Of a DNA stretch of 64,000 nucleotides, positions 23,778-28,008 are shown in pieces. The stretch lies in the sequence record PP925840.1, one strand, 5' to 3'. The stretch is from Escherichia phage SholemSchwarzbard. The notes under the pieces were generated by a model that did not search any database, was not told the origin of the DNA, and saw nothing but the letters and a program-made list of their open reading frames with translations. The translations under genes and the position numbers were made by a program. Position 1 is the first letter of the stretch. Each line of letters starts with the position of its first letter.

Positions 23778-23831
23778 TCCTCATGTTATGTCAGTAAGAT
23801 TACTATAACACAACACGAGGGACTTGTAAAC
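23778..23831 (-). promoter_or_regulatory. T4 early-type promoter plus leader, copy A of a 54-bp repeated element
   Basis: Reverse complement reads GTTTAC-18 nt-TATAGT then leader and GAGGA RBS; 52/54 identical to 38944-38997. Confidence 0.6.
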
Positions 23832-25888
23832 TACATCTTGAACTTTTTAGACATTCCGTTGATGTTAACCAAAGAAGCCAAGATTTGAGAAACTTCGTTT
23901 TCCTCTTCTTTTGATTCTTCTACAAGGAATTGATTAAACCCAGCCATTGGACGAACTTCACCAGTTTCCATTAGATGATCGCCATCATATACCGATTCTT
24001 CTAATTGTTCAGAAGGAGGAACGATTGTGCCTTCGATTAGATACTTGTTATAAGCAGTTTCTTTCATCATGTACGTGCTTACTTTATTAATCTTCAACAA
24101 AATTCCACGCGGTAGAATAACTTCAGCTTCTGATGGAAATCCTGATAAATGACCTGGAACGATAACTTTGATTCGTTCAGCCCCTTTAATTACCATACCT
24201 ACGCTAGTTTCAGCATCTTCATTCGCATAAGCAGAATGACTGCCCATATGCATTAAATCTTCAGCATCAACAGAACCTTCTCCTTCACCAGAAAATACTG
24301 CGCCAGAATCATCTAGAGCCATATAGTTTTTACCATGCTCACCGAAGATATTTGGTTTAAGCGATGTTGATACGAAGTTCTTGAAATAGAACATTTTATT
24401 TTCAATATTGTGGCGTAAAGTTTTAAAAGTAACTTCTTGTCCACGATAAAGCGTAGTTCCCGGAGGAAGAACTGAACCTTTGGCAAAGGCAGAATCCATT
24501 GTCTCGATGTGTTTAATAGCTCGTTCCATGTATTCTTCACGGGTAGAATCTGGTTTACCCAAGAGGAACGAGTTCATTTCAACATATGAATCTGCACAAT
24601 AATCTTCAATTACATCAGACTCAGCCTGAGTTAATCCTTTTGGAGTTACTTCGGTGCTTGCGTATTCATATGCCTGAGCAGCAGATTCATTAATCAATTT
24701 ATAAATGCTATTCATGACAAATTGAATAATAGCTACTTTTTCGTCTGGCGTGGCTTTAGAACCTTTAACTAAATCATTGATAATTTTCTTAATAACATCA
24801 AAGCTATTAGAAATATTAATGTCAGCGAGATCGCTTAAAATTTTATCGGTTTTATAATCAAAGAATTCTTTATTCTTTAAATATTCTTGAGAACCTTGAT
24901 GTGTTATATCGCTCTGCAGTCTGATAGACGGATCACGTAAACGTGCATGGGCCAATGCAATATGATTTCGGAAGCTTTCTAGTTCATAATCGTTAGATTT
25001 AAAACGAGAAGCACTTCTCATACCACCGATAGCTCCTTTGCCGAAGTTGGAACCAATCTGAATAACGCCAGAGTTCATTGGTCCTTCTGCTTTATATACC
25101 GGAACTTTAGATTCAAACTCTTGATATTTCTTAGCGGCGAAGCTATCGCCCTGGAGTGAAGCATCGACAGTAGAATATTGAGCTTGCGCTGCTAATCGAC
25201 GACTAATTTTAGTTTTCTGAATAACAGCTTGATCCGTGCGCTTATCATTTTCTAAAGCAATAGAAGCAGCAACAGCAACAGCTTTAGGAACAGCATTACC
25301 TGTTTTAACATCTACATAAACATCACCAACCTTTGATTCAACTTTTGTGAATAACTCAGTTGAAATAGGAGGTACACCTGGAATGTCTTCTAAATTGGCA
25401 TTTTTACGGTAAACCATAATATATGCATACTTTTTATCATAATCCCAGATTTCCTTTAAAAGAACATATCGACCTGCTCCTTTAGTACGTACTAAACGGT
25501 CAGCAATAACTTGCATTTGACGAGCTGCGCCATTTGTTTTACTTTTTAGTACGCGGAATAGGCATGCATCAATTTTATACTGTTTCATTGTTTGAAGAGC
25601 AGTATCAAAAACCGCATTAATGACACCAATTGGATTTCCACCCAAGTTTTTAAGTTTAACTAATGATAGTTTCTCATTGACACCTATCATTACGATATGC
25701 ATCATTTTATCGCCTGGCTTAACGTTTTTATTTGTATCACCGCCAGAGGTGTATGTACAAAATCTAAATCCAGGAAGCACGCTTTCTTCACCGGCTTGAA
25801 TAGCAAAAATTTGAGGTATTTTATGCTTAGGATTTAAGTTAACAACCGGCGCCGAAGCGCCGTCAAATAATTCTGTAATAAGTTCCAT
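23831..25888 (-). CDS. Alt-like ADP-ribosyltransferase paralog (685 aa)
   Basis: N-terminal about 200 aa close to Alt; R-S-ExE ART motifs present (LYRGQ, FVSTSL, EAEVILPRG); lies at the position of the T4 alt.-1/alt.-2 ORFs. Confidence 0.85.
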   Translation of the reverse strand: MELITELFDGASAPVVNLNPKHKIPQIFAIQAGEESVLPGFRFCTYTSGGDTNKNVKPGDKMMHIVMIGVNEKLSLVKLKNLGGNPIGVINAVFDTALQTMKQYKIDACLFRVLKSKTNGAARQMQVIADRLVRTKGAGRYVLLKEIWDYDKKYAYIMVYRKNANLEDIPGVPPISTELFTKVESKVGDVYVDVKTGNAVPKAVAVAASIALENDKRTDQAVIQKTKISRRLAAQAQYSTVDASLQGDSFAAKKYQEFESKVPVYKAEGPMNSGVIQIGSNFGKGAIGGMRSASRFKSNDYELESFRNHIALAHARLRDPSIRLQSDITHQGSQEYLKNKEFFDYKTDKILSDLADINISNSFDVIKKIINDLVKGSKATPDEKVAIIQFVMNSIYKLINESAAQAYEYASTEVTPKGLTQAESDVIEDYCADSYVEMNSFLLGKPDSTREEYMERAIKHIETMDSAFAKGSVLPPGTTLYRGQEVTFKTLRHNIENKMFYFKNFVSTSLKPNIFGEHGKNYMALDDSGAVFSGEGEGSVDAEDLMHMGSHSAYANEDAETSVGMVIKGAERIKVIVPGHLSGFPSEAEVILPRGILLKINKVSTYMMKETAYNKYLIEGTIVPPSEQLEESVYDGDHLMETGEVRPMAGFNQFLVEESKEEENEVSQILASLVNINGMSKKFKM

Positions 25889-25891
25889 GAT

Positions 25892-27985
25892 TTATCCTTG
25901 AACGAACTTGTAAGGCATGTTTGTAATATCTATGTAAGATGCAATAATTCCAAGAGATGATTCTACTTTTTGTTTAACATTTGATGAAACAAATGATGCA
26001 AAGTCAACTCTGTCTTCTATTTCAATACCACCTGTCATTGCAACTACTTCACCAGTTTCCATTAGACGGTCACCGTCATAAATTACTGATTCGGTGAGTT
26101 CTTCCGTAGTCATAACTTCAGCTTGAATGAGTTTTGTATTATTAGATGTTGTTCCGTCATTATTAGAAGCATCAGTTATTTTATTAACTTTGACCATCAA
26201 TCCGCGTGGTAGAATAACTTCAGCTTCTGTTGCTATTCCGAGACTTCCTGGATATACAACATTAACTTTATGAGCTCCATCAATTGCCCATCCTATTTGA
26301 ACTTTAACGTATTCAGGATTTTCTTTATACGCTCTTATTTCGCTTGGATTAATAGTTATTCCTTCTTCATTTTTATCAACTGTTAATTCATTACGAGCTT
26401 CTGGTTCTAAAAGACCAATACCAGCATGTGTAATTCCAAAACGTCCAAAAATGATAGGAGTTAAAGAAGTAGATACAAAATTTCTGAAATAGAACACTTT
26501 ATTTTTAACTAGTGCTTCATATATAGGAGCAGTCATACTTTGAGCACGATAAACTGTAATGCCTTCTGGTATACGGTCACCATTTTCAAAAGCTGAATCT
26601 AAGTTATTTATAGCAGATTCAATTTCTTTTTCACTCATTACATCATATCGTTCTGGATTGTAGCGTCCTAAAAGAAGATTATTGATGTCAGTATATCCTG
26701 AACCGCAATACTCTCTAATGCCACGCTTTTGTGATGGAGTATATTTAGAACCATCACGGGCAATAGTAATATCAATCATTGGACCTGCACCAATTCCAGA
26801 GAAACTATAAATCATTCTTTTGAGGAATTTAGTTTTTGTCGCGTTCCAGGAATTTTTAGTTATTTCTTCCCAGACTTCATCTGGCTGTCCTTTACGTGTT
26901 TTATTATGTTTATCAAGCCAATTATCTTTATATTCTTCAAAGAATTGATTAACAGCTGCTGCGTATTTCTCTAAACATTTTATTGAAGTAGTTGGTTCAT
27001 TTTTAATCGCATTAAGAATTACATCTTTAATTTTTTCAGAAACTTCATTAACCTCACTTTTTGAAAAGAATTTATAGTCATAATGAAGTTCATCTGCAGT
27101 TCCTTCAGCAATAATTTTTGCTGCCTTAGTTTTAGAAGCTAATGAATTAATTCCAAGCTTCATTTCTTCTGCTTCGGGAATTAAAGGAGCCGTAGCAGGT
27201 TTATTGAAATTAGCTGCGGTAGATTCATACTTTTGGAATAATTCACTTTCAAATCTAGAAGATTCTAATGATTGACTTTGTGCAATTGCTCTACGGGAAA
27301 TTTTAACTTTAACGATTACAGCTTGGTCAGAACGTTTATCGTTTTCTTGCGCAATAGATGCAGCAATTGCCTCATTTTTAGTTACTTGAGCTCCAGTATC
27401 TTTATTGATATAAACATCACCGACCTTCGATTCAACTTTAGTAAAGAGCTCGGTGCTAATTTCTGGAACTCCTGGAATGTCTTCTAGTGATACATTTTTG
27501 CGATGTATAAGAATATATGCATACTTTTTATCGTAATCCCAGAGTTCCTTAAGAAGGACGTATCTACCACCTGAACGACTACGGATAAGTCTATCAGCAA
27601 TAAGTTGAATTTGTCGAGCTTGACCAGCAGTTTTAGACTTAAGAATACGGAGCATACAGGCATCAATTTTATACTGACGCATCGTTTGCATCGCAACAGT
27701 AAAAACTGAATTGATGTAATTAATTGGGCTTGGACCGAGACCTTTTAATTTAGCAATTGAACCTTTAGCAGTTAATGTAAAAGGAACAATATGCATCATT
27801 TTATCGCCCATCTTTAAATCGCGATTAGTATCACCTCCAGATGTATAGGTACACAAACGAAAGCCTGGTTGTTCAATTGCGTCATCAACATGAACTGAAA
27901 AAATTTGCGGTATTTTCTTCTTTGGATTTAAGTTTGTAATCGGAAGAGTAGTATCTTCGTCAAATAATTCTGTAATGAGTTCCAT
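25892..27985 (-). CDS. alt: Alt ADP-ribosyltransferase (packaged head protein), 697 aa
   Basis: Close match to T4 Alt along its length as recalled; ART motifs VYRAQ, FVSTSL, EAEVILPRG; start at second ATG, 5 nt after GAGG. Confidence 0.9.
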   Translation of the reverse strand: MELITELFDEDTTLPITNLNPKKKIPQIFSVHVDDAIEQPGFRLCTYTSGGDTNRDLKMGDKMMHIVPFTLTAKGSIAKLKGLGPSPINYINSVFTVAMQTMRQYKIDACMLRILKSKTAGQARQIQLIADRLIRSRSGGRYVLLKELWDYDKKYAYILIHRKNVSLEDIPGVPEISTELFTKVESKVGDVYINKDTGAQVTKNEAIAASIAQENDKRSDQAVIVKVKISRRAIAQSQSLESSRFESELFQKYESTAANFNKPATAPLIPEAEEMKLGINSLASKTKAAKIIAEGTADELHYDYKFFSKSEVNEVSEKIKDVILNAIKNEPTTSIKCLEKYAAAVNQFFEEYKDNWLDKHNKTRKGQPDEVWEEITKNSWNATKTKFLKRMIYSFSGIGAGPMIDITIARDGSKYTPSQKRGIREYCGSGYTDINNLLLGRYNPERYDVMSEKEIESAINNLDSAFENGDRIPEGITVYRAQSMTAPIYEALVKNKVFYFRNFVSTSLTPIIFGRFGITHAGIGLLEPEARNELTVDKNEEGITINPSEIRAYKENPEYVKVQIGWAIDGAHKVNVVYPGSLGIATEAEVILPRGLMVKVNKITDASNNDGTTSNNTKLIQAEVMTTEELTESVIYDGDRLMETGEVVAMTGGIEIEDRVDFASFVSSNVKQKVESSLGIIASYIDITNMPYKFVQG

Positions 27986-28008
27986 CATATCCTCTCTAGT
28001 GTTTATTC

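Follow-up and report, generated by a model that had tools for sequence, protein, structure and literature searches.

Phage T4, which has a single Alt, is the source of nearly all knowledge on injected phage ADP-ribosyltransferases (ARTs), and a known target of its Alt is Arg265 of the RNA polymerase alpha subunit. About 40 copies of Alt are found per T4 head (PMC9958956), and mass spectrometry has shown that the protein is trimmed by the prohead protease gp21 at ITE-6 and LTE-619 (PMC5694885; PMC9026906). In T4 the alt gene (682 amino acids, aa) is followed by the short reading frames alt.-1 (61 aa, NP_049810) and alt.-2 (67 aa, NP_049809), labelled in the T4 record as duplicating the initial portion of alt. 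Alt paralogs were catalogued by Nolan et al. (2006), among them a full-length copy in phage 44RR, along with T4 alt.-1/alt.-2 (PMC1524935). For phages 6phi13 and SHFML-11, a paper of 2026 mentions "two paralogous Alt-like proteins" that share 43% identity (PMC13600099). Here we analyzed a stretch of 64,000 nucleotides (nt) from Escherichia phage SholemSchwarzbard (PP925840.1; the window), a segment of a Tequatrovirus (T4-like) genome in which the alt locus holds two full-length genes, ALT1 and ALT2. We consider it quite probable that the two constitute an ancestral two-gene Alt module of T-even-type phages, whose products would both be packaged and injected and would most likely act on different host targets. 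The two-gene arrangement is already annotated and mentioned in print, hence not a discovery, and the window is one more member; the additions made here are the mechanism of the T4 deletion, the domain-wise orthology, the allelic cassette of ALT1 and the double gp21 motif in ALT2.

A sequence-only reading of this DNA had proposed two intact tandem Alt-family genes, and both open reading frames are present as described, on the minus strand, each with a PF03496 (ADPrib_exo_Tox) domain. The genes and the parts of ALT2 are the following:

25892..27985 (-): ALT1, the positional alt gene, in a non-T4 '697-aa' allele, 697 aa from the second ATG
23831..25888 (-): ALT2, 685 aa, full-length Alt paralog downstream of ALT1
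25175..25888 (-): N-terminal alpha/beta domain of ALT2 (aa 1-238), sharing 68% identity with that of ALT1, ratio of nonsynonymous to synonymous divergence (dN/dS) 0.011
24644..25174 (-): ALT2 all-helical middle domain, aa 239-415, 17% identical to ALT1
23834..23995 (-): the C-terminal 54 residues of ALT2 after LEE-631

PF03496 scored above its gathering cut-off of 23.4 in both proteins (ALT1 129 bits, 1.8e-37; ALT2 72.9 bits, 2.8e-20), and phrog_802, 'Alt-like RNA polymerase ADP-ribosyltransferase', covered ALT2 1-685 (3.5e-255) and ALT1 1-696 (8.6e-271) in full length. The suggested alignment of the two proteins identified them as paralogs, 40% identical end to end (E=9e-157), and in BLASTP each was collinear with T4 Alt from end to end. 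The catalytic motifs of the second gene are intact, as had been claimed, with YRGQ at 481 (R482), S507-T-S509 and EAEVILPRG at 587 (E587-A-E589), while ALT1 has R480 (YRAQ), S505-T-S507 and E587-A-E589. Alignment of 59 Alt-family proteins, consisting of 50%-identity cluster representatives from a library of 1.8 billion representatives plus close matches, confirmed that the Arg, Ser and Glu are retained in the paralog: R482, S507, E587 and E589 (ALT2 numbering) were invariant in 59/59, as were P593-R594-G595, Y430 and D465. The first four match the R / S-T-S / E-x-E constellation of arginine-type ARTs. An AlphaFold2 model of ALT2 built from the same alignment (mean predicted local distance difference test, pLDDT, 82.6; predicted template modelling score, pTM, 0.75) matched solved R-S-E ARTs over its C-terminal half (Foldseek, E to 4.5e-7), the predicted ART fold being of the C3/Vis/VIP2 type; the ALT2 sequence had no match among PDB chains at E<=0.01, nor in NCBIfam. 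In the precomputed Pfam annotation all Alt-family matches carry PF26846 as a second domain, which does not appear in the local Pfam scan and presumably covers the N-terminal or middle region of Alt proteins.

Two details of the sequence-only reading did not stand. The N-terminal 200 aa, described as near-identical, share only 68% identity over 238 aa, and ALT2 has no distinct C-terminal extension, being shorter than ALT1 and aligned to it over the whole length of the C-terminus at 46% identity. Its last 54 residues are homologous to the 63-residue C-terminal propeptide of T4 Alt that is removed at LTE-619 (PMC5694885). By analogy with T4 Alt, the N-terminal domain, which follows the six-residue propeptide MELITE, would act as a capsid-core targeting module, and the middle domain is a candidate substrate-recognition region. 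ALT2 carries gp21 motifs at ITE-6 (start MELITE) and at LEE-631, the latter followed by S-V-Y-D-G-D, and ALT1 carries them at ITE-6 and LTE-632; the P1 Glu of each of the two motifs is conserved in 57/59 family members. ALT2 would thus be expected to be processed by gp21 at both ends, packaged and injected, with predicted mature masses of 69.1 kDa for ALT2 and 70.2 kDa for ALT1. ALT2 is moreover under strong purifying selection, since the differences among nine orthologs (the window, two IMG/VR contigs and six GenBank phages) were mostly synonymous: all nine were intact with 685 codons, with a mean synonymous divergence (dS) of 0.18, a mean nonsynonymous divergence (dN) of 0.0086 and a ratio of 0.048, and the N-terminal domain was the most constrained part. 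The IMG/VR search returned only two full-length ALT2 loci, the further orthologs coming from GenBank phage records.

Both genes lie between gene 30/alt.1 and alt.-3/gene 54, as does the T4 alt locus, in the minus-strand order alt.-3, ALT2, ALT1, alt.1 and DNA ligase gene 30, with genes 29, 48 and 54 on the plus strand. The signals upstream of ALT1 are:

28009..28016 (-): T4-type late promoter motif TATAAATA, 21 nt upstream of the ALT1 start
28022..28039 (-): GC-rich, terminator-like hairpin AAAGGCCTTCGGGCCTTT, read from sequence, directly at the alt.1 stop, which overlaps it

The hairpin AAAGGCCTTCGGGCCTTT appears to separate the gene 30/alt.1 unit from the alt unit, and 3' of it follow TATAAATA, presumed to be the promoter of the ALT1-ALT2 transcript, a GAGAGG Shine-Dalgarno sequence and two adjacent ATGs of ALT1. 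Only 3 nt lie between the ALT1 stop and the ALT2 start codon, which is preceded by an AAGGA Shine-Dalgarno sequence, and a terminator-like site was looked for between ALT1 and ALT2 and not found. With the shared late promoter and the short gap, ALT1 and ALT2 appear to form a single late transcription unit. A second exact copy of TATAAATA is located inside ALT1 (26605-26612, minus strand), about 720 nt upstream of the ALT2 start, and could give ALT2 an independent late transcript or be a chance match. The ALT1 reading frame (25892-27988, minus strand) encodes 698 aa from the first ATG (27988) and 697 aa from the second (27985). The second has the better Shine-Dalgarno spacing and yields MELITE, the start of T4 Alt, which makes 697 aa the more likely length of ALT1; several GenBank records (e.g., AR1 and SH7) appear to use the first ATG, T4 and others the second.

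The identification of the upstream gene as alt holds for its position and not for its middle and catalytic regions, which belong to a different allele. Compared with T4 Alt (NP_049811), ALT1 shows 99% identity in aa 1-238 and 91% in the C-terminal tail, whereas identity drops to 32% in the middle domain and 66% in the ART domain. The variable part was delimited by DNA identity to T4 alt:

26212..27260 (-): ALT1 variable cassette, approximately codons 243-592

Outside this cassette identity to T4 alt is 95-100%, inside it 31-75%, after which it recovers, with sharp edges near 27260 and 26212, a pattern that points to an allelic replacement of the middle and ART modules. Among close relatives ALT1 occurs as two discrete alleles, the T4-type of 682-685 aa and the 697-aa type of the window, which are about 100% identical to about codon 240 and near the C-terminus and 12-70% identical in between. 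Both alleles occur beside the same ALT2: in AR1, phiC600P9 and ES19 its neighbor is the T4-type ALT1, in the window the 697-aa allele. Judging from these comparisons, neither catalytic domain in the window corresponds to that of T4 Alt.

As the sequence-only reading stated, T4 has only alt.-1 and alt.-2 at the position of the second gene, and their description as degenerate alt-like remnants is borne out by translation and blastn. The translation of T4 alt.-1 reproduces the N-terminus of ALT2 at almost every residue. In blastn of T4 against the window one block runs from upstream of ALT2 to 25541 with 94% identity and the match resumes at 23850 with 96%; the overlap between these blocks is the 9-mer CTAAAAAGT, which occurs exactly twice in ALT2, and T4 lacks 1 nt near window position 25729, near ALT2 codon 55. 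The two repeat copies mark the edges of the deletion:

25541..25549 (-): CTAAAAAGT copy 1, ALT2 nt 340-348, left edge of the deletion yielding T4 alt.-2
23842..23850 (-): CTAAAAAGT copy 2, ALT2 nt 2039-2047, right edge of the T4 deletion

Hence T4 alt.-1/alt.-2 represents not a partial duplication of alt but a full-length ALT2 that has decayed through a frameshift of 1 nt and a repeat-mediated loss of 1,699 bp. The T4 frames and ALT2 are one and the same gene: DNA identity is about 94% in the first 348 nt and in the last 20 nt, and the ART domain is missing from the T4 version. The short PHROG families of alt.-1 and alt.-2 length also scored far better on ALT2 than on ALT1. The T4-type remnant is matched over its full length in G8, F25, RPN226 and AV120, and is present in the environmental isolate VEc20, checked directly, beside the other ALT1 allele; its occurrence in environmental isolates rules out a laboratory artefact as the origin of the T4 deletion.

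The intact pair is widespread. Megablast of the 4.9-kb region retrieved 544 phage records, 347 of which cover at least 80% of it, the typical annotation among the matches listed being 'Alt-like RNA polymerase ADP-ribosyltransferase (x2)', and by tblastn a full-length ALT2 of >=90% identity was present in 401 records. The T4 remnant region was matched by 501 records; an evenly spaced sample of 25 gave five with the T4-type junction and 19 in which the match ended at the deletion edge. From these counts, roughly 80% of sequenced Tequatroviruses carry the intact pair and roughly 20% the T4-like state, a split estimated from the evenly spaced sample and the tblastn identity bands (by megablast coverage intact genomes also reach 85%). 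The intact pair is hence the majority state and T4 the derived exception. ALT2 orthologs in Tequatrovirus records share 97-99.9% protein identity, and tandem pairs in the identical arrangement are annotated in AR1, ime09, HY01, Shfl2, SH7, RB32-type phages and about 400 other Tequatrovirus genomes; a tandem Alt-like pair is found in Dhakavirus (dhabil, JS10 group) too. A Tequatrovirus Alt locus with 98% protein identity was also present in PV654520.1, 'Pseudomonas phage vB_PSGBLB0006' (host P. aeruginosa ATCC 9027, 142 kb, taxonomy 'Viruses' only), a record whose host assignment or assembly looks doubtful.

In Dhakavirus phage dhabil the tandem pair occupies the equivalent genomic place, and protein identities differ by domain:

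ALT1 and the dhabil upstream copy: N-terminal 47%, middle 64%, ART 84%
ALT2 and the dhabil downstream copy: N-terminal 47%, middle 44%, ART 56%
ALT1 and ALT2 (one genome): N-terminal 68%, middle 17%, ART 36%
dhabil upstream and downstream copies (one genome): N-terminal 65%, middle 16%, ART 37%

The middle and ART domains follow an old orthology by position, which indicates that the duplication predates the split between Tequatrovirus and Dhakavirus. The N-terminal domains (window 25175-25888 and 27272-27985, minus strand) show the reverse of the catalytic part, being 65-68% identical within a genome and 43-47% between positional orthologs. Old gene conversion, or a co-evolution of the domain with the capsid core, may explain this likeness within genomes; recent conversion is unsupported, given a dS of about 1.2 between the N-terminal regions of ALT1 and ALT2 and a longest shared exact DNA stretch of 22 nt, located in the ExE region, so that any conversion was not recent. 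The ART domain of ALT1 is 84% identical to that of the dhabil upstream Alt, as compared to 58-65% identity for the flanking genes of the Tequatrovirus window and Dhakavirus, which suggests an exchange of the ALT1 cassette between genera.

According to the reading we favor, one late promoter would drive ALT1 and ALT2, and each product would consist of an N-terminal domain of about 240 aa after a six-residue propeptide, a fast-diverging helical middle, an R-S-ExE mono-ADP-ribosyltransferase domain and a C-terminal tail behind the second gp21 motif. In analogy with T4 Alt, both would be incorporated into the core of the prohead, processed by gp21 at each end, retained in the head, injected with the DNA and then ADP-ribosylate host proteins using NAD+; for ALT2 we infer packaging, injection and enzymatic activity from this analogy. 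Strong differences in the middle domain, the STS-ExE loop and the residues before ExE make it most likely that the two enzymes have different host proteins as substrates. At -3 to the first ExE Glu, the ARTT-loop position that contacts the substrate in C3-like toxins, ALT2 has F584, ALT1 an I and T4 Alt a P (Y/F in 36/59 family members), and the STS-ExE loop of ALT2 (residues 518-539) is long, acidic, of low confidence in the AlphaFold2 model and unrelated in sequence to that of ALT1. Along with the 17% identity of the middle domain, these are hints that favor different substrates over redundancy. A wider target range through two packaged ARTs, as had been suggested, is plausible and would fit the conserved gp21 motifs and the strongly diverged substrate-side regions.

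Several points weigh against this reading. The argument for different targets relies on sequence divergence only, and about 100 natural isolates, T4 included, are without ALT2, which is hence dispensable on at least some hosts. In the searchable literature we found passing mentions of ALT2 and no packaging, activity or target data, nor a publication reporting it in particles. In the virion proteome of Shigella phage SH7 the ADP-ribosylase detected (119150-121210) is the upstream gene, ALT2 being at 117089-119146, although this proteome was very shallow (13 structural proteins, Alt with two peptides and 3% coverage), so that the absence of ALT2 carries little weight. These last observations are what would be expected if ALT2 were a functional ART that is neither packaged nor injected and acts late in the producing cell or only in head assembly; we regard this as unlikely, since ALT2 keeps both the MELITE propeptide and the C-terminal [LI]xE-S cleavage motif, resembles ALT1 in its N-terminal domain (68% identity), the most constrained part of the protein (dN/dS 0.011), and shares the late promoter with ALT1 (predicted co-transcription). 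The loss of ALT2 by T4-type phages without obvious harm, and the family, ExE arginine-type motif and operon common to both Alts, would agree with a redundant back-up or dosage copy acting on the Alt targets (RNA polymerase alpha subunit and others) with no added host range. Such a role appears very unlikely for paralogs that have been distinct since before the Tequatrovirus/Dhakavirus split, with 36% identity in the ART and 17% in the middle domain and a different -3 residue before ExE, and a dN/dS of 0.05 held for so long would be unexpected in a redundant copy.

Within the favored reading of two packaged enzymes with different targets, we tentatively propose, as a possibility somewhat short of an even chance, a two-slot delivery in which a genus-specific N-terminal packaging domain, matched between the copies, is combined with swappable middle-ART cassettes. 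In this scheme ALT2 would be injected as an additional effector aimed at targets of its own, perhaps proteins of host defence; T4 Alt and the toxin MazF appear together in literature on ADP-ribosylation. The proposal derives from the ALT1 allele boundaries near codons 243/592, the reversal of identities between N-terminal domain and cassette, and the 84% identity of the ART with respect to 58-65% of its neighbors. If it is true, T4 gives an incomplete picture, having lost the second effector. Approximately four fifths of sequenced Tequatroviruses carry a well-conserved second Alt that is apparently uncharacterised, and should ALT2 be packaged and act on substrates of its own, takeover or counter-defence at injection would be broader in most T-even phages than in the T4 model.

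The neighborhood of the pair includes the following features:

23480..23770 (-): alt.-3, 96 aa, DUF5498, downstream neighbor
23830-23802 (-): early-promoter-like site before alt.-3 (TTTACA, 17 nt, TATAGT, with an upstream TG)
23475-23454 (-): strong terminator hairpin 3' of alt.-3
28038..28226 (-): alt.1, 62 aa, upstream neighbor, Pfam PF24647 'Phage blade protein' (7.5e-29)

C-terminal extensions of T4 Alt.-3 lead to phage escape from the CmdTAC defence system (PMC11618068), and PF24647, matched by alt.1, is a recent Pfam family.

Among known systems, the closest is T4 Alt, a head-packaged NAD+--arginine ADP-ribosyltransferase that shares with the Alts of the window the locus, the position of the late promoter and collinearity over the full length, together with the R / S-T-S / E-x-E residues and the gp21 motifs at ITE-6 and, as L-x-E, at the C-terminus. 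ALT2 is only 42-44% identical to it overall, and the middle and ART domains of ALT1 are closer to the Dhakavirus upstream copy (64% and 84%) than to T4 Alt (32% and 66%). ModA and ModB of T4 are small early proteins that are not packaged and are encoded elsewhere in the T4 genome. They too are phage-encoded ARTs of the R-S-E clade (PMC5512222). The C3-like, VIP2 and Vis R-S-E toxins have the catalytic fold and the R, STS, ExE constellation in common with the Alts, at a sequence identity of 15-25%; the Alts differ from them by the extra N-terminal domain of 240 aa, the helical middle and the termini removed by a protease, and by delivery through the phage head rather than by secretion.

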